Below, in pieces: positions 7,536 through 28,079 of a stretch of 31,264 nt of DNA. This DNA comes from Thermoproteota archaeon. GTDB lineage: Archaea; Korarchaeota; Korarchaeia; Korarchaeales; Korarchaeaceae. Location: positions 1 to 31,264 of the forward strand of contig JAOZFI010000024.1 in assembly GCA_027491395.1 (NCBI GenBank). The letters run 5' to 3'. A model generated the notes under the pieces. The model was not told the origin of the DNA. It was given only the letters and a program-made list of their open reading frames with translations, and ran no database searches. Each line of letters starts with the position of its first letter. Within the stretch, counting starts at the first letter, position 1. A program made the translations under genes and the position numbers.

Positions 7536-7568
7536 GTAAACAATAAATGTTAACACTTACAGTTAACA
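7536..7568. promoter_or_regulatory. Putative antitoxin operator array upstream of vapBC
   Basis: GTAAACA (7536), GTTAACA (7549) and GTTAACA (7562) at exact 13-nt spacing; includes the perfect inverted repeat TGTTAAC-N7-GTTAACA. Confidence 0.65.
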
Positions 7569-7580
7569 ACCGGTGTGGAC

Positions 7581-7805
7581 ATGAGCGCGGTGATAGGAGT
7601 AAGGGTTCCGAAGAAGCTCAAGGAGGAGCTGGAAAAGTTGGAGATCAACTATTCAGAGGAAATCAGGAAATTTCTGGAGGATTTAGTCAGGAGAAAGAGG
7701 GCAGAGAGAATAATGAGGAGATTAAGGGAATTGGAGAGGTCCGTCGGGAGGGTGGAGGGTAATCTATCCGTTGAACTCGTGAGAGAAGATAGGGAGGACA
7801 GATGA
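7581..7805 (+). CDS. vapB: VapB-type antitoxin, ribbon-helix-helix (CopG-like)
   Basis: MSAVIGVRVPKKLKEELEKL..NYSEEIRKFLE (strand-helix-helix) and C-terminal 'SVELVREDRE' typical of archaeal VapB; ATGA overlap with the PIN gene. Confidence 0.85.
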   Translation: MSAVIGVRVPKKLKEELEKLEINYSEEIRKFLEDLVRRKRAERIMRRLRELERSVGRVEGNLSVELVREDREDR

Positions 7806-8242
7806 ATGGAAAGAGAATCGTTGTCGACTCCAACATCTTGGTGAAATGGTTCATTCCGGAGGATTACCACGAGGAGGCAAAGGCCCTTCTGGAGGACCAT
7901 CTATACGGGAGGGTAGAGGTAGTCATACCACGATACGCTGTTCTTGAATTCGCGAATGTGTTGAGGAAGTACCGGGTCAGGGGGATCATTGGAGAAAGGG
8001 AAATGAGGGAGGCGTTCGACCTCCTCGTGGAGTCCGCCCCGGTGATGATAGAGGAGAACGAGGAACTCGTGAGAAAGGCGCTGGACTATTCCTTAGAGAG
8101 GGGTCTCACTGTGTATGATGCCTACTACATGGTGCTGGCCCGCGAGCTTGGGGCTATCCTATATACAGCGGATGAGAGGGTCGTTCGTCAACTGGTAGGG
8201 GAGGAATCCTCCCTTAAGCACATTAGTGAGTATGTAGATTGA
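7802..8242 (+). CDS. vapC: VapC toxin, PIN-domain ribonuclease
   Basis: IVVDSNILVKW, E(FAN), TVYDAYY, LYTADE: all PIN acidic residues present. Confidence 0.93.
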   Translation: MNGKRIVVDSNILVKWFIPEDYHEEAKALLEDHLYGRVEVVIPRYAVLEFANVLRKYRVRGIIGEREMREAFDLLVESAPVMIEENEELVRKALDYSLERGLTVYDAYYMVLARELGAILYTADERVVRQLVGEESSLKHISEYVD

Positions 8243-8379
8243 CCTTAAACACCCAAGAGGAAAGTTCACAAGGGTTTTCTCTGCATGCGGGATCCAAGAT
8301 ATTCTCGGTCGTGTAAGTCATCGTGGGAATCTGGCCTTGATGCATACTCCGACGGGAGCAGGGTGGCGCCTGCGTGGAG

Positions 8380-8394
8380 CGTAAAATATTTCAA
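8380..8394 (+). promoter_or_regulatory. Putative BRE/TATA promoter of the TPP riboswitch-thiB transcript
   Basis: AT-rich CGTAAAATATTTCAA in GC-rich surroundings, about 25-30 nt upstream of riboswitch P1. Confidence 0.5.
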
Positions 8395-8416
8395 GGTTTA
8401 CCGACGTTAAGGTATG

Positions 8417-8521
8417 GCGGGCACCGGGGGAGCTGGGGAGAACCCGGCTGAGAGGGCGGCTAGCCTGCCGCCGACCCCTCGAACCTGATCCGGGTAATGC
8501 CGGCGTAGGGAGCGTGCCCGC
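8417..8521 (+). ncRNA. TPP riboswitch (THI element) aptamer
   Basis: P1 GCGGGCAC 8417-8424 / GTGCCCGC 8514-8521; GGGG..GCTGAGA (8447-8453); stems GCTGGG/CCCGGC and GGCGGC/GCCGCC; ACCC; GAACCTGATCCGGGTAATGCCGGCGTAGGGA (8481-8511). Lies directly upstream of a thiamine-binding protein gene. Confidence 0.97.
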
Positions 8522-8543
8522 GGCAGCTCCTTATGCTGGCGGC

Positions 8544-8565
8544 CCCTCCAGTGCCCGCTGGAGGG
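8544..8565 (+). promoter_or_regulatory. Shine-Dalgarno-sequestering hairpin (riboswitch expression platform)
   Basis: CCCTCCAG 8544-8551 pairs with CTGGAGGG 8558-8565, which contains GGAGG (8560-8564), 9 nt before ATG 8574. Confidence 0.8.
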
Positions 8566-8573
8566 CGGCGGTG

Positions 8574-9677
8574 ATGAGGTGGAGTGGTAAGGTCATACTG
8601 GCCCTAGCCATAGTCATCATAGTGGTTTTGGGTATTTCTTACTGGTACCTGACCTCCAAGCCAAGTGGGGAGAGGAAGCTGGTAATATACACGTACGAGA
8701 GCCTCCTGAAGTGGGGGGACGATCCCAACGCGACGAGGCAAGCTGTCTTCGGCGAATTCGAGCGCAGATACAACTGCAAGGTGGAGATAAGGGAGTTCGA
8801 CGATGCGAGGACGGCCCTGCTGACGGTTATACAGGAGAGGGACAGGCCCAAGGCGGATGTCATAATAGGGATCGATAACGTTCTGATCCACGAGGCGTTG
8901 AAGGAGGGCGTTTTAGAGCAGTTCAAGCCCAAGAACGTGGGAGAGATCCACAAGTGGCTAGTGAAGTCGCTGGATCCCTCCTACCACGTGGTACCCTACG
9001 ACTACGGGCTGATAGCTCTAGTCTATGATAGTAAGAGGATGCCCGAGGATAAGATGAAGGAACTGACATTCGAGAAACTGGCGAGTAAGGAGTACGCCTC
9101 CAAGCTAGTCGCTGAGGACCCAACGGTGAGCAGCACCGGCCTGAACTTCCTCCTCTGGCAGATCGCTTACTACAAGGTGAAGGGCGGCGACTGGACCGAT
9201 TGGTGGAGAAAAGCCAAGGCCAACGGGCTGCTCGTCACCGGGAGCTGGGGCGACGCCTACGACGTCTTCCTCGACGAGAAGCAGGGCAGGCCCATAGTAG
9301 TCAGCTATGGAACCGATGGAGCCTACTCCTACCACTTCTACAATGAGACCAGATACAAGGCCGCGCTTATCACACTTAACGGTGAGGAGTGGGGGTGGCT
9401 ACAGATAGAGGGGCTTGGAGTGGTGAAGAACGCGCCCCACAGGGAGCTGGCCGAGAGGTTCGTGGAGTACTTCATCAGTGAGGACGTGCAGAGGCACATA
9501 CCCCTCAACAACTGGATGTATCCTGCTAACAAGCACGTAAAGCTTCCCGAGGAGTACGTGAAGTACGCGTTCGATCCAACCAAGATAAAGCTGCTGAACG
9601 AAGTCTTACCGCCCGAGGAGGTTGGAAAGAACCTAAAGATGTGGTTAGATGAGTGGAGGAGGGCAGTGGGCTCCTGA
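8574..9677 (+). CDS. thiB: Thiamine ABC transporter substrate-binding protein, N-terminally membrane anchored
   Basis: IYTYES, ADVIIGIDN, PYDYG, EDP..SSTGLNFL, W.DAY..F, VVSY.TD, QIEG, NWMYP. Start moved to ATG 8574 because GTG 8514 is part of riboswitch P1. Confidence 0.93.
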   Translation: MRWSGKVILALAIVIIVVLGISYWYLTSKPSGERKLVIYTYESLLKWGDDPNATRQAVFGEFERRYNCKVEIREFDDARTALLTVIQERDRPKADVIIGIDNVLIHEALKEGVLEQFKPKNVGEIHKWLVKSLDPSYHVVPYDYGLIALVYDSKRMPEDKMKELTFEKLASKEYASKLVAEDPTVSSTGLNFLLWQIAYYKVKGGDWTDWWRKAKANGLLVTGSWGDAYDVFLDEKQGRPIVVSYGTDGAYSYHFYNETRYKAALITLNGEEWGWLQIEGLGVVKNAPHRELAERFVEYFISEDVQRHIPLNNWMYPANKHVKLPEEYVKYAFDPTKIKLLNEVLPPEEVGKNLKMWLDEWRRAVGS

Positions 9678-9679
9678 TA

Positions 9680-9697
9680 CCCCTCCTCCTCTCTTTT
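9680..9697 (+). terminator. Pyrimidine-rich putative archaeal terminator after thiB
   Basis: CCCCTCCTCCTCTCTTTT just after the stop codon. Confidence 0.4.
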
Positions 9698-9935
9698 GAG
9701 TACGCCGCCTGCCGAACCCCAAATCGTGAGCTTACGCGTTAGGAGCTCTTACTGATCGGCATGGAGGAGAGCCCCTTCCTCTCCCTAGTGCCCGGATCCA
9801 CCCAGAGGTGAGAGGATCCAGCTAGAGATCAGAGCTCTCTACTCTATCTCATATGCTGTAGAGAGAATGTGCGAGGTTCCTCAAGGATTGACACGCTTAT
9901 CTTTTTTCCCTCTCTTATCGAGCGGTGCCTCGGGA

Positions 9936-11468
9936 ATGGGCGGGAGGAGGGAGCACCTAGCAGCACTGGCGTCAGCTTCACTAGCTCCCCTCCTGTGGGC
10001 GATCGCGTTCCTCCCGCTCATGGTCTCAGGCATCGCCCACATTCCCGAAGTGCTTACGGATCCCGCCATAATGTCTGCCCTTCTCTTCTCCCTCGAGCAA
10101 GCCCTCCTCGCATCTATCATCGCCATCGGCATCGGAATCCCTCTGGGATACGTCAACGCCACCTTCGACTACCCCGGCAGAAGGCTCGTTGAGGTGATTA
10201 CCCTAGCCCCCTTCACCATGCCGACGGTGTCGGTGGCCCTAGCTTTCCTCCTAATAGTCAGGTCCGGCCTGCTCCCTCCCGGTCTTCTGGCCATTTCCCT
10301 GGCCAACGCTTACTTCAACTTCGGCTTCTGCGCCTCCCTCGTCTCCTCCTCACTGTTATCGGTTGGTAAGCGCCTGGAGGAGGCTGCCGAAGTCATGGGG
10401 GGCAGTAGATGGATGGTATGGAGGAGAGTGGTAATTCCCCTAGCCATCAGGGGCGTCTCCTACGGGTTCGCCCTCACGTTCACCCTAAGCTTCACCAGCT
10501 TCGCCGTCCCCCTGCTGTTGGGAGGTCCCGGTTCCCGAACGCTGGAGGTGGAGATCTACTCCCTCTACAAGGTCTTCCTAGATGAGGGGAGAGCTTCTGC
10601 GGCTGCGATCCTCCAGCTTCTCGTGACCATGGCTCTTACCTTCCTGCTCACAGCGAGGGGAGTGAAGACTAGGTCGCTGGAGGTGAGGAGGCGCAAGTCA
10701 GCCGGGCCGAGCGTCGCCCTCCTCCCCTACGCGTTGGCCCTCCTCTCCTCCTACCCCATGGCCTACCTAGTTTTTCGATCCCTCTACAATCCCTTCACCG
10801 GCGAGTTCAACCCGTGGGTGTACCTGAGGCTGCTAAGCCCCTCATACGATCCCGCTCTAGGTGTCTCACCCTTGAGACCACTCCTGAACAGCGTTTACTA
10901 CGCGGTTATGACCTCCCTCATCGTTCTTACCCTCTCCTCCATCTTGCTCCTCTCGAGGAGGGCTGTGAGGCTGGCCAGCTCCCTTTCTATCCTCCCACTC
11001 GGGACATCGTCCATCACCCTAGCGTTAGGGCTGTTGCTGCTTAGCTACAGGGTGGGGATCTCCGGCTGGGTCGCGATAATCCTTAGTCACTTCCTCATCG
11101 CCTTCCCGTTCTCCCTAAAGGTGCTGGAATCTGGGGTCTCGGGGCTGTCGCCCCATCTCATGGACGCTGCCGAGACTCTGGGCCTGAGCAGGCTCGACAC
11201 AATCTTTAGAGTCGTCCTCCCAGCGGCGATGCCGGCCGTCCTCTCCTCAGCCTTCTACGCACTAGCCATATCCCTCTCCGAGACCTCAGCGTCTACCCTT
11301 CTATCCACTCCCGAGACCATGACCCTCACGGTCGCGGCGTTGAGGTATTCCGGTGCTAGGAGGTTCCAGCTGGCGTCAGCGGCCTCGGTCATCGTCATGG
11401 GGCTGACCTGGCTCTTCCTATGGGTGAAGGGCAGGATCGAGTCTGGGTTGAGGTGGATGAGGGAGTGA
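9936..11468 (+). CDS. thiP: Thiamine/iron-type ABC transporter permease with two membrane domains
   Basis: Two EAA loops (LEEAAEVMGGSRW, LMDAAETLGLSR); FSLEQA, PFTMPT, FTSFA.PLLLGGP..TLEVEIY. Start ATG 9936 inferred. Confidence 0.85.
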   Translation: MGGRREHLAALASASLAPLLWAIAFLPLMVSGIAHIPEVLTDPAIMSALLFSLEQALLASIIAIGIGIPLGYVNATFDYPGRRLVEVITLAPFTMPTVSVALAFLLIVRSGLLPPGLLAISLANAYFNFGFCASLVSSSLLSVGKRLEEAAEVMGGSRWMVWRRVVIPLAIRGVSYGFALTFTLSFTSFAVPLLLGGPGSRTLEVEIYSLYKVFLDEGRASAAAILQLLVTMALTFLLTARGVKTRSLEVRRRKSAGPSVALLPYALALLSSYPMAYLVFRSLYNPFTGEFNPWVYLRLLSPSYDPALGVSPLRPLLNSVYYAVMTSLIVLTLSSILLLSRRAVRLASSLSILPLGTSSITLALGLLLLSYRVGISGWVAIILSHFLIAFPFSLKVLESGVSGLSPHLMDAAETLGLSRLDTIFRVVLPAAMPAVLSSAFYALAISLSETSASTLLSTPETMTLTVAALRYSGARRFQLASAASVIVMGLTWLFLWVKGRIESGLRWMRE

Positions 11469-11603
11469 CGAAAAAGTATGCGTGGAACTTTAGGGGGCTC
11501 AAGGTAATGGTAAAGTTCGACATGTTGGGAATATGATGATCCGGATGGAGCGCCCTGACTGTGACCACCAATTGAGGTGCGCACGAGAGAACGGGTGATG
11601 TGC

Positions 11604-12620
11604 TTGGCGGAGATAAGGGTAATTAATGTGAGGAAGAGGTTCAAGGGTACCAAGGCACTGGATGGGGTCAATCTTACGGCTCCGGACGGGATGATAACCG
11701 CCGTTCTAGGTCCGAGCGGTTCAGGGAAGACGACCTTGCTCAGGGTAATAGCAGGGCTGGAGACGCCGGATGGGGGCAGGGTGTACTTCGACGGGAAGGA
11801 TGTGACTGATACGTCAGCCTCGGAGAGGGGGGTGGGAATGGTATTCCAAGATCTGGCGCTCTTTCCACACATGACGGTCTTGGAGAACGTGTCTTTCGGG
11901 CTGGAGGCTAGGGGACTATCGGAGAGAGAGGCCGAGTCTAGGGCTAGGGAGGTGCTGGAGATGCTCAGGTTAGAGGGCCTAGAGCACCGCTACCCACATC
12001 AACTGTCGGGCGGGCAGCAGCAGAGAGTAGCGATTGCGAGGGCTTTAGCCCCCGACCCCAAGATACTGCTTCTCGACGAGCCCTTCGGCTCGCTGGATGC
12101 CAAGCTGAGGGAGGAACTCCTGTGGGAGATGCGGAGATTGAAGGAGGAGAGCGGCTTCACCGCCATCCACGTTACCCACGATCAGTCGGAGGCCATGGCT
12201 ATAGCCGACAGGCTGGCCGTGATGAACGAAGGGAAGATAGTTAGGGAGGGGAGCGTGGAAGAAGTTGTGAGCGATCCTCAAACGGTCTTCGTTGCCTCCT
12301 TCCTAGGGGCCAATGTGGTGGAGCTGGTAGAAGTTTCCCCTGGAATCTACGGGGCTGATAGGCTCATGGTCAGGTACGAGGAGGGGTTGGGCAAGCTTAG
12401 GATCGGATTCTACCCTGAGGATGTGAGGCTGGGCGAGGGTCTGCTTGTGGTGGTCGAAGCGGTTTCCAAGTGGCGCTCCGGTTACAGGGTGAAGGTAAGA
12501 TCCGAGTTCTCCGAGGGAGAGATGGAGGTGTGGCTGCCCAAGGTTCCGGGGAGGAAGTTCGAGATAGAGGTGAGGAGGTGGTTCCCCCTTTCTGATACCC
12601 CTCCACAAATTCTCCCCTGA
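11604..12620 (+). CDS. thiQ: ABC transporter ATP-binding subunit
   Basis: Walker A GPSGSGKT, Q-loop VFQD, signature LSGGQQQR, Walker B LLLDEP, H-loop VTHD. TTG 11604 follows GGGTGA; ATG 11598 is also possible. The symbol is assigned from gene context. Confidence 0.85.
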   Translation: MAEIRVINVRKRFKGTKALDGVNLTAPDGMITAVLGPSGSGKTTLLRVIAGLETPDGGRVYFDGKDVTDTSASERGVGMVFQDLALFPHMTVLENVSFGLEARGLSEREAESRAREVLEMLRLEGLEHRYPHQLSGGQQQRVAIARALAPDPKILLLDEPFGSLDAKLREELLWEMRRLKEESGFTAIHVTHDQSEAMAIADRLAVMNEGKIVREGSVEEVVSDPQTVFVASFLGANVVELVEVSPGIYGADRLMVRYEEGLGKLRIGFYPEDVRLGEGLLVVVEAVSKWRSGYRVKVRSEFSEGEMEVWLPKVPGRKFEIEVRRWFPLSDTPPQILP

Positions 12621-13738: not shown

Positions 13739-15262
13739 TCACTGATCCTCCTCGTCCTCATCCCTAGTAGTATAGTAGGGAGTCTCCGTTGAATCCTCGT
13801 TGTCTTGAGCTCCCCAACTGTAGTAACCGAACACAGCAGAAGGATCGGAGCTCTCCTGCTCCAGCCTCTCCATCTGCCAATCGTCGCTTATGGATGCATC
13901 GAGCCAGCCCAGCCTATCGCCTTCGTTGTCGTAAACGTAACCGTCCTCCACGTAGCCCACCTCATCCCCCTCCTCATCCCTTAGGATGCCTTCGCCATCT
14001 ATCTCATAGAAAGATACGTCCTCTCCTAGGTCCATGTCTCTAACTTGCCCATCGCTGTCCACGTAAAAGGTGTCCATGCCCGTCCCGGTAGCCACGTCAT
14101 CCCCTTCCCATTCGCTTTCATAACTGGAGCTGTCATAGCTGGAACTATCTAGCTCCCATCCACTGTAGCTGTCTTCTAAGCCGTACTCAGGCTGGTAGTT
14201 GTGGAATTGGCTGGTCTTCAGGGATCTCGCGATCTGGTCAGTGAGTCTGCTGGTGGACCTGATGGAGCTTAAGACGGACTTATAAGCCATGTCACTCTCC
14301 CTCTTTAGGGCTTTAGCCCATTCCTGTCTCATCTCGAAGTGTGCTGCTATGCTCTGGAGTATCCAGAGGGCGCTCCTTCCCTTGGAGAGGTAAAGATAGG
14401 CGGCCCATATCTGTGATCCCATGAAGTTCTCCCCAATGGTGGTGACCCAAGCGTAACCGTCCTCCAACTTAGCTATGGCTGAGCTAAACATTGGCTGCTG
14501 ACCTGTCGTTAGGGTAGACGCGAGTTTGGCCGTAACCAAGTGAGCTAAACTTCCGGGGATAGGTGCGGGCCTAACATCCTTCACCTTAATCCCCATAGGC
14601 GTCAAAGCCGTCCTCATGTAGCTGATAGCATCCATGTAGGGGCTGACCTTAGCTCCCATCATTAGGTAGGACTGGACTATTAACGGGTTCCCGTAAACGT
14701 AGGTACTGGGGGGAGTCATGGAGATCAGATAGTCCCTCCCCCGAATCTCCATAACGGGAGCCTCTCCTTGAGCGTAACACTTGACGTGAGATTGGTGTGG
14801 GACCGCTGTCTTGAAGGCGACGACTCCCCTCGCGGGATCAGGTACGTTGATCCTACTGGCCTCGATTGAGTTCAGGAGCTCTGGTTTCCCGTAATTCTCT
14901 AAATCTTTGCTTAGATACTGTACGTGAGATGCCCATCCCCAAGATGGTTTTCCCGGGTAGACCCTTATTACATACTCCCCCGGAGGGGTTCTCATGACCT
15001 GCTGCGTTAGTGTCCCTGGGAGGTAGCCCCTAGCCTCGATGAACTTCCCTCTTGACACTCTGGCATTCAAAGGAGCTCCTATCAATGCCTCTACGTAATT
15101 TACTATTTCCTTGATCAGAGAATCGGCATCGAGTCGGGATGAGAAGATCATCGTGGTGGGCACATGGGGGTGATGCGAAAAGAGGGTACTTTCACTGGCT
15201 AATACCAGCCACCCATCGGGGACGTGAGCGCGGATCCCTATGAACATATCCCTGTACTCCAC
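13739..15262 (-). CDS. Hypothetical protein with a strongly acidic C-terminal repeat region
   Basis: 507-aa ORF without signal peptide; the last ~150 aa are D/E/S/Y/G-rich with (V/I/Y)-D-x-x-G units. Confidence 0.8.
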   Translation of the reverse strand: MEYRDMFIGIRAHVPDGWLVLASESTLFSHHPHVPTTMIFSSRLDADSLIKEIVNYVEALIGAPLNARVSRGKFIEARGYLPGTLTQQVMRTPPGEYVIRVYPGKPSWGWASHVQYLSKDLENYGKPELLNSIEASRINVPDPARGVVAFKTAVPHQSHVKCYAQGEAPVMEIRGRDYLISMTPPSTYVYGNPLIVQSYLMMGAKVSPYMDAISYMRTALTPMGIKVKDVRPAPIPGSLAHLVTAKLASTLTTGQQPMFSSAIAKLEDGYAWVTTIGENFMGSQIWAAYLYLSKGRSALWILQSIAAHFEMRQEWAKALKRESDMAYKSVLSSIRSTSRLTDQIARSLKTSQFHNYQPEYGLEDSYSGWELDSSSYDSSSYESEWEGDDVATGTGMDTFYVDSDGQVRDMDLGEDVSFYEIDGEGILRDEEGDEVGYVEDGYVYDNEGDRLGWLDASISDDWQMERLEQESSDPSAVFGYYSWGAQDNEDSTETPYYTTRDEDEEDQ

Positions 15263-15713: not shown

Positions 15714-16457
15714 ATGAAGCTGGTTAAATTGCTGGAGAGGTTGGAGGGGTATCATGAAGAATTCGTTGAGGCCCTCCGAAATTATCGATTGGGAGCGGAG
15801 AGCATTTATGCGGTCGAGCGGCTCGCTCAGCTGATATCTCAGGTGATTCTGGACTTCGCAGCAGTCCTCGTTTCCAAGAGGAGGGGTAAGAAACCGGAGT
15901 CTTACAGGGATCTAGCTAAATGGTTATCAGAGGTGACTGATCCTGGTTTCGAGGATTTTTTGGAGGGTGTAGCGGGTTTTAGAAATATTCTCGTCCATAT
16001 GTACGCGGATATAGACAGAGATCTGGAGATGAGGGCATTCGAGGAGCTGGCTGAAAGGGTTCCTGAGTTGATTAGGTATTTGAGGAAGCTGGCTGATGAT
16101 CCTTGTTTGGATCAGGTGAGGAAGATTATTCGAGATAAGGCTCCTGAGCTGGGTATAAGATTGGTCTACGTCTTCGGCTCTCTGGCGAGGGATGAATGTG
16201 GTAATGATGTCGACTTAGCCGTAAAGCTGGAGGAGAGGCCTAGGAGTATGCTGGACATTGGAAGGCTTCAGGTTGAGCTGGAAGCTCTGCTTGGAGCTCC
16301 AGTCGATCTAATCGTGCTGAACTTGGATGTAGACCCTGCCTTGGCTAAGACAATAGTCGATGAGGCGATCCTCATTTACGGCGATGAGGGGGAAGGAGAG
16401 GAGGAAATCCTCAAACTATACAAGAAGTCCTTAGATGCCCTAGCATACGGGAGGTGA
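15714..16457 (+). CDS. HepT-like HEPN RNase (DUF86) fused to an MntA-like nucleotidyltransferase
   Basis: N-terminal half: VER..Q...Q..LD, PESYRD, GFRNILVHMY (R-x4-H). C-terminal half: VYVFGSLAR, DVDLAV, VDLIVLN. Confidence 0.9.
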   Translation: MKLVKLLERLEGYHEEFVEALRNYRLGAESIYAVERLAQLISQVILDFAAVLVSKRRGKKPESYRDLAKWLSEVTDPGFEDFLEGVAGFRNILVHMYADIDRDLEMRAFEELAERVPELIRYLRKLADDPCLDQVRKIIRDKAPELGIRLVYVFGSLARDECGNDVDLAVKLEERPRSMLDIGRLQVELEALLGAPVDLIVLNLDVDPALAKTIVDEAILIYGDEGEGEEEILKLYKKSLDALAYGR

Positions 16458-24647: not shown

Positions 24648-25898
24648 TTGGAGGCCCTGACCCTCTCCCTCATCGATCAGCTTACCCCCCTCCTCTATCT
24701 ACTAGGCTTGGGCGTAGTGCTCTCGTTACTCTTCTCCCTAGTGGAGATGTTCTCCATCGATAGAGTACTGAAGCTGGTCAGAGGGAGGAGGGCCTTCGTC
24801 TTCCTAGGCAAGGAGGCGCACTATGGCAGGCTTCACATCCCACCTAGGAGTAAGGGCGGGTTCGAGGTGTTCTACGAGGATGCTGCCGTTGAGAATCCCC
24901 TGTCCCTCGTCGCGTTCCTCGTGGAGAACTACCACGAGACCGGGAACGAGAGGTTCCTTGAGAAGGCAAGGCTTATTCTCAACTACTTGAAGGAGAAGGG
25001 AGCGTTAAAGCAGGATGTCGAGATAGAGGACGTAAAGATAGATCCCTGGGCCCCTCCCAGCCTCGTCTCTAGGAAGGTCTACCCCAACGAGCTAGGAGAT
25101 CTGTGGATGATAGCGAGTTTCGTGGACTTCATGAGCGATGAGGAGAGGAAGAGGAGGTGGAAGGAGTTTACCTCACTCTACAGCAGGCCCTTCCTCAAGA
25201 GGCTCAAGAGGAAGGTTTACAATGCCCTTAGCTACGTCAAGGACAAGGTGGCCTCGTCCCTCACATCCACGGTCAGCGTGGTGACTCCTGCGGTCCCCAA
25301 GGATCTGAAGGCCCACTTGGAGGAGGCAGAGAAGAAAGCTGTTACCTCTCTGATCACCCAGACCTACGATCCTCTATTAGAGAATAGCATAGGTAGGCTA
25401 GTTACGGTGAGGATTGACGATGTGGAGGGTGAGAGGAAGCTTTACCAAGGCGTGCTGGCCGAGTACTCCGACAAGTACCTGTACGTGCTGGATGTGGACT
25501 ACAGGCTCCAGATGATAGCCACCTTCTCGGGAACTGTCAGGAGTGCCCCTTTAGTGAAGGTGTTCGGCAGGTACCTGCAGCTGGGAGATCATTTGAGTGT
25601 GGGGATGAAGGGCGAGGAGGCGGTGCTGAAGAATATATGGGAGAGGCCGATCAAGGTTGAGAAGCTTGTGAGCGACAATCAGGAGGTTAAGCTAAACAAG
25701 GTGCTTTTCCCCGGGGAGGAGGTGCGTGCCAAGGTCCCCGCTAGCGAATTCGTGATACATTACGAGATATCCTTGGAGGCCGATGTGGTCTGGCCGAGGA
25801 GCAAGGCCGTTATCGTGGGCCTCGGAGACTACCCGCCGGACATACTCGGGAGTGTTTTAGGCAGCGTCAAGCTGAGGGACTTGAGGAAGATCGTCTAG
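24648..25898 (+). CDS. Hypothetical protein with N-terminal membrane anchor
   Basis: 416 aa; TTG start after GGAGGTGA; single hydrophobic helix at about aa 14-33; appears co-transcribed with the peptidase. Confidence 0.85.
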   Translation: MEALTLSLIDQLTPLLYLLGLGVVLSLLFSLVEMFSIDRVLKLVRGRRAFVFLGKEAHYGRLHIPPRSKGGFEVFYEDAAVENPLSLVAFLVENYHETGNERFLEKARLILNYLKEKGALKQDVEIEDVKIDPWAPPSLVSRKVYPNELGDLWMIASFVDFMSDEERKRRWKEFTSLYSRPFLKRLKRKVYNALSYVKDKVASSLTSTVSVVTPAVPKDLKAHLEEAEKKAVTSLITQTYDPLLENSIGRLVTVRIDDVEGERKLYQGVLAEYSDKYLYVLDVDYRLQMIATFSGTVRSAPLVKVFGRYLQLGDHLSVGMKGEEAVLKNIWERPIKVEKLVSDNQEVKLNKVLFPGEEVRAKVPASEFVIHYEISLEADVVWPRSKAVIVGLGDYPPDILGSVLGSVKLRDLRKIV

Positions 25899-25940: not shown

Positions 25941-28079
25941 TTAAATACCAATTTCCAGCCTTACGGCACGATCGGGATGGACAAACCCGAGGCATGGGTT
26001 ACCCGCCTGTCCTCTACTGAATGAATCCTTGATGGAGGTCTTTCCGCTCAGGTCAGTTATATTTCTGGAGCCTGGCAGCCCTCCAATGCCGGGTGGATTT
26101 CCATCCCCACCATTCCCGCCGTTGGAGGCTGATTTCACTTCGACCGCCCCATCCTTCCCGCTCCCCAGTGTTCCAATACCGTGGCTTCCTGATTCAGCGG
26201 TCACATTGCCCCCTCTGCCTCCCTTGCCACCCTTCTTGAAGATCTCACTCTCGTAGATACATCCCGTTGCTCCGTCTCCCCCGTTCCCTCCGGATATGGA
26301 GGCGTTTCCTCCATTCCCTCCCTCGAAACCCGATGCCGGGACGATCCCGCTGGGCGCTGAAAGTACGGCATTACCGCCTTTACCCGCTATTGCCTCAGCA
26401 TTACCGCCCCTACCTCCATCGCAGGAAGTGGCGTTCCCGTCACCTCCATCGCCCGGTATGGCCCTAGCGTTACCTCCATCTCCGGCCATTCCTCCGCTTA
26501 TCGAGGGGACAGAACCTCTGAAACCACCTGATACCATCCGGTAGGATCCACCTCCACCATCTCCCGCCTCCGCCATCGCATTCCCGCCGTTACGCCCTGG
26601 GCAGCCGTCCTCTCCCTTGGCTCCTGAGGCCTTCGCATCACCTCCCCTGCCTCCTCCACCTAGGATTACCTTGTTTGTCCCCTTGAATTCCAAGTAGACA
26701 TCCACATCGATCAGGAACCCGCCTCCCCAGCCGCCTGGTCCACCTTTCGCCTTGGCGTTTCCATCCCTCCCGGGGAAGGCGATCGCGGTTCCGCCCTTCC
26801 CACCGTTACCGGTCTTGAAGGTCGTATCCTCCACTACCAAGTTCCCCCTCGGTCCTAGGCCGAGTTTGAAGCCCTCAACGAATATCGAGAGACCTACACC
26901 GTGCTCTCCGCTACCCGCCACGGCCTTATCATCAGCAGTTCTGTTACACCCGCTCCTACCGTCCCTCGACTTGAAGTAGCTGTTCTTGAGGTATATGTCT
27001 CCCCAAGCTGTGAGCACCCAGCTCTTCCTAGGTCTGAAGAGTCGCTGCCACACGCAGCCGCCCCTATCCTTCTGGACGAACTTCGAGTTCTTCACTACTA
27101 TGAAATTCCTGAACTGCTGTTGCTGTCTTACAGGGTTGGGCGGCACCCAAGGGAGCCATTTCGGCTTGTTTCCTTGATTGGGAGGTACGCGAGATGCCCC
27201 ACTGAGATTCTGACCGATCTCTAACCTCTTACCGACCTCCATCGGGTTCGGGCCGCTGGAAACCACTATCTCCCCGCTGGTGGTGATGTTCGCCTCTATC
27301 GTGACGTTCCCAGCTCCCCACACGAGTACACCGGGCAAAGTAACGTTCTCCGTGCTTTGATTCGACGATATCGCTTCAGGAGAGTGGGGCGGGCATGAGT
27401 TGTTCACCTTACCTTGTAGGGTGATGTTAGACGAGGAGATTAGGGCTAAAGCCGCGCATTCCCCCATGACCCTCCCCATCATCTCTAGGGGGCCCAAAGA
27501 GACGATCATCGTGTCTCCATCCAAGTGAACCGTCGCATCCGGACCCATTTTCAGGGACGAGGTGATTAACTTTCCCTTGATCCTGACCTCGCCGCTGAGC
27601 TGGAGACGCGGAGCTATCGTAGAGAGGATCCTATCGTACACCTCTTGATAGGCCCTCCTAGTGTCGTTTCTGTCACTGCCCATGGCGATCAAGACCGTCT
27701 GTCCCTCTTTCCAGACATCGTGCAACTCGAGCAGGAAACTCGCGCCTCGTTTCCTTACCGCTGACATCATTGAGGAGTTGAGGAGGGACCTCACTATACC
27801 ACCAGTTCCCTCGTAAGCATCTGGTCCACCCAGAATGATTACCAGATCGGCCATCCTCTGAGTAGAGAATTGGGAGGGATGGATGCTCACGACATCGAAT
27901 CCCAGCTGTCTCATCTCCTCCAGAAAGTCCCCAGCCAAACCCATATCGACCGAGTTACCCAAGATGACCAGTTCGGAGTTACTCTCCAAGATTTCCTCCT
28001 GTTTAGTAGGGAGCTGGTAAGGAAGGAGGAGCAGAAATGCCATCGTAACCACTAAGAAGATAGGACTTCGCGAATTCAC
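25941..28079 (-). CDS. Secreted protein: S-layer/cell-wall-binding-like N-terminal domain, beta-rich middle, glycine-rich PGRS-like C-terminal half
   Basis: Signal peptide; LGNSVD, VIILGGPDAYEG.G, DVW..GQTV....GSDR..T; then many G-x-G-G-x-G-G-x-A units. Confidence 0.85.
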   Translation of the reverse strand: MNSRSPIFLVVTMAFLLLLPYQLPTKQEEILESNSELVILGNSVDMGLAGDFLEEMRQLGFDVVSIHPSQFSTQRMADLVIILGGPDAYEGTGGIVRSLLNSSMMSAVRKRGASFLLELHDVWKEGQTVLIAMGSDRNDTRRAYQEVYDRILSTIAPRLQLSGEVRIKGKLITSSLKMGPDATVHLDGDTMIVSLGPLEMMGRVMGECAALALISSSNITLQGKVNNSCPPHSPEAISSNQSTENVTLPGVLVWGAGNVTIEANITTSGEIVVSSGPNPMEVGKRLEIGQNLSGASRVPPNQGNKPKWLPWVPPNPVRQQQQFRNFIVVKNSKFVQKDRGGCVWQRLFRPRKSWVLTAWGDIYLKNSYFKSRDGRSGCNRTADDKAVAGSGEHGVGLSIFVEGFKLGLGPRGNLVVEDTTFKTGNGGKGGTAIAFPGRDGNAKAKGGPGGWGGGFLIDVDVYLEFKGTNKVILGGGGRGGDAKASGAKGEDGCPGRNGGNAMAEAGDGGGGSYRMVSGGFRGSVPSISGGMAGDGGNARAIPGDGGDGNATSCDGGRGGNAEAIAGKGGNAVLSAPSGIVPASGFEGGNGGNASISGGNGGDGATGCIYESEIFKKGGKGGRGGNVTAESGSHGIGTLGSGKDGAVEVKSASNGGNGGDGNPPGIGGLPGSRNITDLSGKTSIKDSFSRGQAGNPCLGFVHPDRAVRLEIGI

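Follow-up and report, generated by a model that had tools for sequence, protein, structure and literature searches.

The window studied here, contig JAOZFI010000024.1 of a korarchaeal genome assembly, is a stretch of 31,264 nucleotides (nt), and our subject is the leader that precedes its gene for a thiamine-binding protein. A scan of the window against Rfam matched a sole family, the thiamine pyrophosphate (TPP) riboswitch RF00059, at positions 8416-8529 of the + strand, the strand on which all elements of the leader and its transporter genes lie. The covariance model is matched over its full length (model positions 1-105 of 105), with a score of 64.6 bits against a gathering score of 54.3 (E = 1e-10), and this is the single match in the whole 1.716-Mb genome. 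An initial annotation, made by reading the DNA letters, had called a TPP aptamer here; the Rfam model bears this out, and on direct reading every string it named was found where it had been placed.

All the aptamer helices P1 to P5 form both in a fold in which P1 was constrained and in the minimum free energy (MFE) structure of the aptamer alone. In the constrained fold P1 comprises 8417-8424/8514-8521, P2 8425-8430/8476-8481 and P3 8431-8437/8443-8449, followed by the second hairpin of the aptamer (8455-8460/8467-8472), P4 (8484-8487/8506-8509) and P5 (8490-8493/8500-8503). The CUGAGA motif (8448-8453) lies at the P3-P2 junction, the P4/P5 core spans 8481-8511, and the consensus elements ACCUGAUC...GGGUAAU...CCGGCGUAGGGA are present. 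The G+C content is 75% in the Rfam match and 53% in the genome.

Reading 8200-8800 directly, we find that the 5' strand of P1 is GCGGGCAC (8417-8424). Its exact complement GTGCCCGC occurs twice, as the 3' strand of P1 (8514-8521) and further downstream at 8551-8558. Counting both strands of the window there are three copies of GTGCCCGC or its complement, all within the riboswitch, where 0.92 would be expected; three of 100 shuffles of the window reach this number. Stronger evidence against a chance match comes from the comparison of 24 related leaders below, in which these complementarities are preserved by compensatory changes. The second site overlaps a hairpin at 8544-8565, CCCUCCAG / loop UGCCCG / CUGGAGGG, in the stem of which CCCTCCAG (8544-8551) faces CTGGAGGG (8558-8565). 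The anti-Shine-Dalgarno (anti-SD) strand is 8544-8549, and the Shine-Dalgarno (SD) sequence GGAGG (8560-8564) begins 14 nt ahead of the ATG at 8574-8576.

This ATG is in frame with a 367-amino acid open reading frame (ORF) ending at 9677, for which there is an alternative GTG start at 8571. The product is a thiB-like substrate-binding protein (SBP) of a thiamine ATP-binding cassette (ABC) transporter, with a match to Pfam SBP_bac_1. It scores 198.4 bits against TIGR01254, where the cut-off is 93.4, and 137.1 bits against the thiB equivalog TIGR01276, where the cut-off is 317. The thiB call of the initial annotation therefore holds at the level of the thiamine-binding subfamily, not at that of the stricter equivalog. 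Downstream are an ABC permease with two BPD_transp_1 domains in a ThiP-like layout (9867-11468, Pfam; the thiP models match below their cut-offs) and an ABC transporter ATPase (11577-12620, Pfam ABC_tran 138.8 bits; the NCBIfam matches are generic and below cut-offs). The gaps between the three genes, 189 nt (9678-9866, starting with CCCCUCCUCCUCUCUUUUG) and 108 nt (11469-11576), are unusually long within one operon.

In the window's genome, which is estimated to be 98.4% complete, there is no match to ThiC (PF01964) or CytX (TIGR02358). Thiamine import is therefore probably essential, and gene content suggests that the organism probably depends on imported thiamine. Such dependence fits the loss of thiamine metabolism inferred for part of the Korarchaeaceae in the accessible part of a preprint (10.1101/2023.09.28.559970).

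Alternative pairings of the leader

We have aligned 24 complete leaders from related loci, leaving out six loci that are cut by contig ends. Pairing frequencies below are percentages of cells in this alignment, and as a control the partner strand of a helix was slid by 1-3 columns. P1 is paired in 98.4% of cells, and two of its pairs covary. For the hairpin that buries the SD the figure is 86.8%, so that the burial proposed in the initial annotation is found across the relatives, and it also forms in each fold in which P1 is enforced.

In the ON state envisaged in the initial annotation, the 5' strand of P1 would leave the aptamer and pair with the second copy of its complement at 8551-8558. 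With one flanking pair added at each end (10 pairs, 8416-8425/8550-8559) this helix is paired in 90.0% of cells, compared with 38-43% when slid, and none of 500 shuffles reaches its covariation score. The helix is thus conserved and covarying, and it is longer than had been noted, since it takes in the anti-SD strand in addition to the hairpin loop. In its extended form, as defined by alignment and RNAalifold, the 5' strands of P1 and P2 (GGCGGGCACCGGGGG, 8416-8430) act as an anti-sequestor that pairs with 8545-8559, with the GGGGG of P2 facing the CCUCC of the anti-SD. The extended ON helix is paired in 92.8% of cells (46-61% slid). In 22 of the 24 leaders 13-15 of its 15 positions are paired, and in the cytX-type leaders 14-15, with the inner 14 bp unbroken.

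Compensatory changes occur in the ON helix at four column pairs, 6/158, 11/153, 13/151 and 4/160. The pair 6/158 is CG in 15 leaders and AU in seven, while 11/153 is AU in 13 and GC in eight. Columns 6 and 11 of the 5' strand covary with the 3' strand of P1 and also with the hairpin loop (columns 158 and 153), and the pattern of substitution indicates that one 5' strand tracks two alternative partners. In the leader L013 the loop has a compensating U-to-C change, and the P1 3' strand keeps a G-U pair. Given nothing other than the alignment, RNAalifold recovers the long-range ON helix (columns 3-18/146-161), and the same fold contains P3, the second hairpin, P5 and an 8-bp core of a further hairpin (columns 97-104/121-128) described below. 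Covariation among relatives had been put forward in the initial annotation as a check on the switch, and the alignment shows conservation and covariation in P1, the SD hairpin and the ON helix. The alignment indicates that the anti-SD has an alternative partner inside the aptamer, making the aptamer and an open SD mutually exclusive.

When the first ON helix is forced alone, the predicted fold adds unprompted a long hairpin, 8499-8518/8522-8540. This putative anti-aptamer hairpin (8499-8540), supported by the MFE structure and the alignment, is made up of 8499-8513/8526-8540 and 8515-8518/8522-8525 with the loop 8519-8521, and it would join the 3' strands of P5, P4 and P1 to the conserved CUCCUUAUGCUGGC. 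It is present in the unconstrained MFE structure from 37 to 85 °C, and has a probability of 0.96-0.99 in each transcript that contains it. Its positions are paired in 88.2% of cells, compared with 41-53% when slid. At column 131 a U-to-C change in six leaders converts a G-U to a G-C pair in this hairpin.

Promoter, translation start, host and distribution

Upstream of the aptamer there is an AT-rich box of the BRE/TATA type in the GTAAAATATTTC region (8382-8393), 24-35 nt upstream of the first base of P1. Positions -33, -28, -27 and -26 relative to P1 are A or T in all 27 distinct upstream 70-mers of related loci, and the box keeps a fixed distance to P1 across these loci. In archaea the distance from TATA box to start site is about 26 nt. 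From this spacing and the conserved position of the box, the transcript is predicted to start at about 8414-8417, the foot of P1. On this prediction the start would not lie downstream of the aptamer, a condition that the initial annotation had named as refuting the switch. No RNA-seq run was listed as containing 8250-9250, and all 16 DNA datasets listed share with it just a small fraction of words.

The genome initiates translation with GGAGGUG Shine-Dalgarno sites. Upstream of 1232 long ORFs, GGAGG is most frequent at -12 (40 occurrences, 17 at -14, background about 5) and GGTG at -9 (92, background about 8). A core SD 4-mer lies between -18 and -4 in 523 of the 1232, compared with 330 in a control stretch. 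The 3' end of 16S rRNA in two genomes of the same genus is GGAUCACCUCCC, which is complementary to the SD.

A candidate upstream ORF of 13 codons, from an ATG at 8533 within CUCCUUAUGCUGG to a TGA overlapping the main ATG (TGATG), was set aside. By eye, neither its frame nor its length is conserved in relatives, and it is probably not a conserved upstream ORF. In L003 the counterpart of this ATG lies in frame with the main ORF.

The host is an archaeon, as the initial annotation had assumed. Its genome contains archaeal RNase P RNA (175.6 bits), archaeal signal recognition particle (SRP) RNA (155.6 bits) and RpoN, which among the control genomes was matched solely in the four archaeal ones. 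The genome is a metagenome bin of 62 contigs with an estimated contamination of 1.93%, and the bin holds no small subunit (SSU) rRNA of its own. One single-contig genome of the same genus carries archaeal SSU rRNA (1418.7 bits) together with the riboswitch, and this excludes a bacterial contaminant; both one-contig and two-contig relatives have the riboswitch and archaeal 16S rRNA. The closest relatives of the SBP are all labelled as archaeal metagenome-assembled genomes, under the names Crenarchaeota, Thermoproteota or Nitrososphaerota archaeon. The host probably lives at high temperature.

The riboswitch family has members in 16 of the 20 genomes from the genus, in 24 of the 35 from the family and in both genomes from a second family of the class, whereas the 23 genomes from other families gave no match. 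In this small phylum 32 genomes reach a completeness of 80%, and a match was found in 23 of them, that of the window included. The scores of the relatives against RF00059 are 55-77 bits. Classified by N-terminal similarity, the genes that follow the leader at 30 loci include 10 thiB-like genes and 14 CytX-like permeases, and five loci have no called ORF (four of them cut by contig ends). Gene types were checked with NCBIfam and Pfam for the window's SBP, three CytX-like proteins and one ThiC. The CytX-like proteins score 266-298 bits against TIGR02358, just below the cut-off of 309.85, and the ThiC, which follows a related leader, scores 555 bits. The same kind of leader therefore precedes three gene types, thiB-like, CytX-like and ThiC.

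Several genomes of the genus carry two TPP riboswitches, and that of the window carries one. Truncated copies of the cytX-type riboswitch lie in two relatives, at L108:149-260 (G016:C2:749598-749709) and L109:~100-190 (G007:C18). Their 3' half is intact, from the second hairpin to CUUCUCCUUA(U/C)GC, while unrelated sequence stands in place of the P1/P2 5' strand and the SD hairpin is missing downstream; one of the two still scores 55.2 bits. The flanks are alike in both genomes, and the remnant is therefore conserved. The G016 copy lies 1.6 kb upstream of an intact riboswitch.

The aptamer core is not specific to the lineage. Its 31-nt P4/P5 part (8481-8511) recurs without a single difference in at least 120 metagenome contigs. 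These come from many habitats, and nearly all of those listed lack the expression platform of this lineage. Among the metagenome matches listed, three have that platform and are near-identical to known leaders, and a fourth match to the regular expression, L131, is of a different type. We also scanned 74 loci of SBP homologues (Desulfurococcales, Asgard groups and others) with a regular expression, which may miss divergent aptamers. Of the 12 matches two were false positives and ten real. In seven of the ten the SBP is at least 68% identical to the query over its length; the other three are at contig ends or partial, with identity in the same range.

Elsewhere in the window, a PIN-domain gene (7802-8242, +) ends 140 nt upstream of the promoter box, with a possible small partner ORF just before it (7547-7805). 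A single ORF of 247 amino acids at 15714-16457 (+) joins a HepT-like RNase domain (residues 28-125) to an MNT/Pol-beta nucleotidyltransferase domain (132-224), whereas the two domains are usually encoded by separate genes of a toxin-antitoxin pair. The ORFs at 13739-15262 (-), 24648-25898 (+) and 25941-28079 (-), of 507, 416 and 712 amino acids, gave no Pfam match at E ≤ 0.001.

Proposed switch and rival explanations

We propose that the leader is a putative TPP riboswitch at the 5' end of the mRNA of a thiamine importer, working as a translational OFF switch of the thiM type, and we would give this reading roughly three chances in four. Transcription would begin at or just before P1, from the conserved TATA-like box, and the aptamer (8416-8521) is predicted to fold once it has been made. 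If TPP is bound, P1 and P2 would hold 8416-8430, leaving 8544-8551 to pair with 8558-8565, so that GGAGG is buried and the gene is OFF. Without TPP, 8522-8540 would invade the 3' half of the aptamer to make the 19-bp anti-aptamer hairpin, releasing the 5' strand. The freed strand could then form 14-15 bp with 8545-8559, with the SD and AUG left single-stranded, giving the ON state. Once the 5' strand is free, the ON helix would be kinetically favored, since the partner strand 8545-8559 is made ahead of the SD. We also considered pairing of the loop with the 5' strand under a closed SD stem, which would be a pseudoknot, and rejected it on geometric grounds, as no linker nucleotide would be left between loop and stem.

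Predicted energetics for the window's own leader at 37 °C give -96.7 kcal/mol for the aptamer with the SD hairpin, -99.1 kcal/mol for the ON helix with the anti-aptamer hairpin and -101.8 kcal/mol for the MFE structure. On these values the OFF fold would need the energy of ligand binding, as expected for a riboswitch. Folding of partial transcripts is consistent with the order of events proposed. In a transcript of 8416-8521 the aptamer is the MFE structure and P1 has a probability of 1.00; when the transcript reaches 8541 the anti-aptamer hairpin has a probability of 0.99; and in transcripts ending at 8559-8566 the ON helix has a probability of 0.87-0.88 and the SD is fully unpaired. Among the 24 leaders, 11 form the ON helix with a probability of 0.8 or more in the free ensemble, and in 10 enforcing the aptamer lowers the probability of an unpaired SD by 0.2 or more (in L006, for example, from 0.66 to 0.01).

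A number of results weigh against the proposed switch. The predicted probability of the ON helix shifts with transcript length, being 0.23 for 8416-8580, 0.03 for 8416-8600 and 0.88 for 8414-8640. In the free ensemble of 8414-8596 it is 0.01, with 0.82 for the SD hairpin, and at 37 °C the SD of this transcript is unpaired with a probability of 0.05 free and 0.00 with the aptamer enforced. At 70 °C the corresponding values for the window's leader are 0.19 and 0.03, and the outcome depends on transcript length. The MFE structure pairs the freed 5' strand with 8463-8470 and keeps both the SD hairpin and the anti-aptamer hairpin. Since the outcome changes with length, the states appear to be nearly degenerate in the folding model, and the predicted equilibrium folding of the window's own leader is ambiguous. 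There is no clear change at the SD in 14 of the 24 leaders, including all five of the closest thiB-type leaders, with SD columns misaligned in some. In the window itself the ON helix contains a C-A mismatch (8425/8550). The covarying leaders form few clades, amounting to about 4-5 independent compensatory events, and the shuffle control ignores this kinship. The GGAGG of the leader begins at -14 relative to the ATG, still in the enriched zone but two positions upstream of the genome mode. The anti-aptamer hairpin shows no informative covariation, its aptamer side being invariant, and the thiC leaders L002 and L029 (genus g5) use a different anti-aptamer pairing. There the partner of the anti-aptamer strand GCCUUCUUAGCCGG is the CCGGCUGAGAGGGC region of P3/J3-2 (the CUGAGA region), not the P4/P5 3' strand; these two leaders would seem from their sequences to build the same switch logic with a different partner.

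The initial annotation had drawn the ON state otherwise, as two nested helices, 8417-8424/8551-8558 and 8427-8435/8524-8532, without an anti-aptamer hairpin. Both complementarities are present in the sequence: GGGGAGCTG at 8427-8435 can pair throughout with CAGCTCCTT at 8524-8532, two of the pairs being G-U, and this second helix is paired in 94.2% of cells, compared with 48-78% when slid. Its 5' side, however, is invariant aptamer core, and no pair has changed on both sides. Of the nine pairs, three are absent or gapped in 7-10 leaders, or (column pair 21/120) unpaired in eight more. It would also overlap 8427-8430 of the extended ON helix as well as the P3 hairpin, both of which RNAalifold keeps. 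With both helices forced the energy at 37 °C is -70.4 kcal/mol, against -99.1 kcal/mol with the first alone, a deficit of about 29 kcal/mol; a gap also remains in constrained folding at 60, 75 and 85 °C, the kind of check suggested in the initial annotation. The second helix offers no partner to the conserved UUAUGCUGG, which is paired in the anti-aptamer hairpin, and in the folding model the conserved CUCCUUAUGCUGG is better explained by this hairpin, paired with GCCGGCGUAGGGAG. We conclude that the second ON helix is probably wrong, with moderate confidence that the anti-aptamer hairpin takes its place; the exact fold of two nested helices is quite improbable.

Another explanation would accept the aptamer as real and treat the SD hairpin as constitutive, with TPP acting on transcription, processing or mRNA stability and the match between 5' strand and loop having no function. 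The equilibrium folds in which the SD hairpin of the window persists ligand-free at some transcript lengths would fit with this, and the action of archaeal riboswitches is largely unstudied according to the accessible text of two papers (PMC8241225, PMC11549558). A match without function would not explain why compensatory changes preserve it in different clades. The longest T run between 8521 and 8574 is two on reading the sequence, so that an oligo-T terminator after the aptamer is unlikely. The predicted accessibility of the SD depends strongly on the aptamer in 10 of the 24 relatives, and the genome uses SD sites at such spacing. We regard this explanation as unlikely, though it is the strongest competitor. 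That the element might be non-archaeal or non-functional, on a misbinned bacterial contig or as a decaying aptamer, is brought to mind by the fragmented bin with its estimated contamination and missing SSU rRNA, by the P4/P5 core found in at least 120 metagenome contigs, three of those listed with the platform, and by the truncated copies in two relatives. Against it stand the presence of the riboswitch across the genus and family, one- and two-contig genomes with archaeal 16S included, a conserved upstream box of archaeal TATA type, a score above the Rfam cut-off across the full model, and the archaeal labels of all the closest SBP relatives. We consider it very improbable indeed.

A bolder form of the proposal is that the TATA box, aptamer, anti-aptamer strand and SD hairpin together constitute a portable cassette that this archaeal phylum has copied ahead of three unrelated thiamine genes (thiB-like importer, CytX-like permease and ThiC). 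The cassette would take its decision kinetically during transcription, in the heat, through a double strand exchange, with the aptamer's own 5' end serving as the anti-sequestor. We hold this tentatively, at slightly under even odds. If true, this would be the first translational riboswitch native to archaea with a platform readable from covariation, and would provide a ready-made thiamine-repressible expression cassette for hyperthermophilic archaea.

Comparison with known systems

TPP aptamers in archaea and the principle of SD sequestration are already known, and this is not a new kind of system. The interest is in a covariation-backed and testable expression platform in an archaeon. Natural archaeal riboswitches are almost unstudied. 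The leader offers a concrete hypothesis on how ligand binding is coupled to expression in them, with named nucleotides, a host that uses SD sites and a predicted transcript start, in an archaeal lineage that would be auxotrophic for thiamine and whose importer is under putative RNA control. A G+C-rich, heat-stable and ligand-repressible leader could also be a genetic tool for thermophilic archaea. In the accessible text of the literature searched we found no description of this platform in this lineage, and the word 'riboswitch' is absent from the accessible part of the Korarchaeota preprint (10.1101/2023.09.28.559970).

The closest parallel is the thiM leader of Escherichia coli, which has the same aptamer family and the same logic of anti-SD and anti-anti-SD. 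According to the accessible text of PMC2018614, the anti-SD of thiM pairs with the SD when ligand is bound, or else with an anti-anti-SD that P1 sequesters on TPP binding; this anti-anti-SD, nucleotides 83-86, belongs to the 3' strand of P1 and pairs locally. In the refined model given there, the platform of ligand-free thiM also pairs with the P4/P5 part of the aptamer to make an extended 3' helix, which resembles the anti-aptamer hairpin we propose. Unlike thiM, the archaeal leader would draw its anti-anti-SD from the 5' strands of P1 and P2. These would reach over about 115 nt to form a helix of 14-15 bp around the whole aptamer, and a separate hairpin would remove the aptamer 3' half. The thiM switch is bacterial and has been tested experimentally, whereas the leader described here belongs to an archaeon and is a switch predicted from sequence and folding.

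Among archaea, the leader resembles the predicted members of RF00059 in its aptamer class and in its position upstream of genes for thiamine transport or synthesis. A survey by Rodionov in 2002 reportedly includes predicted archaeal TPP riboswitches. The riboswitch counts of McCown et al. are 79 in Euryarchaeota, 6 in Crenarchaeota, 1 in Korarchaeota and 1 in Thaumarchaeota, with TPP and fluoride the common archaeal classes (PMC5473149, accessible part). That text treats aptamers only and describes no expression platform, which is what we propose here. The initial annotation knew of no archaeal example dissected mechanistically. This agrees with the accessible text of PMC8241225 and PMC11549558, where the fluoride riboswitch is given as the only native archaeal one to have been validated experimentally. 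Like the fluoride riboswitch of Thermococcus kodakarensis, the leader is natural and comes from an archaeon, in that case a hyperthermophile, and the fluoride switch too is presumed to act on translation. Unlike it, the leader has a TPP aptamer and would turn an importer OFF, whereas the fluoride riboswitch, of another aptamer class, responds to another ligand and turns an exporter ON.

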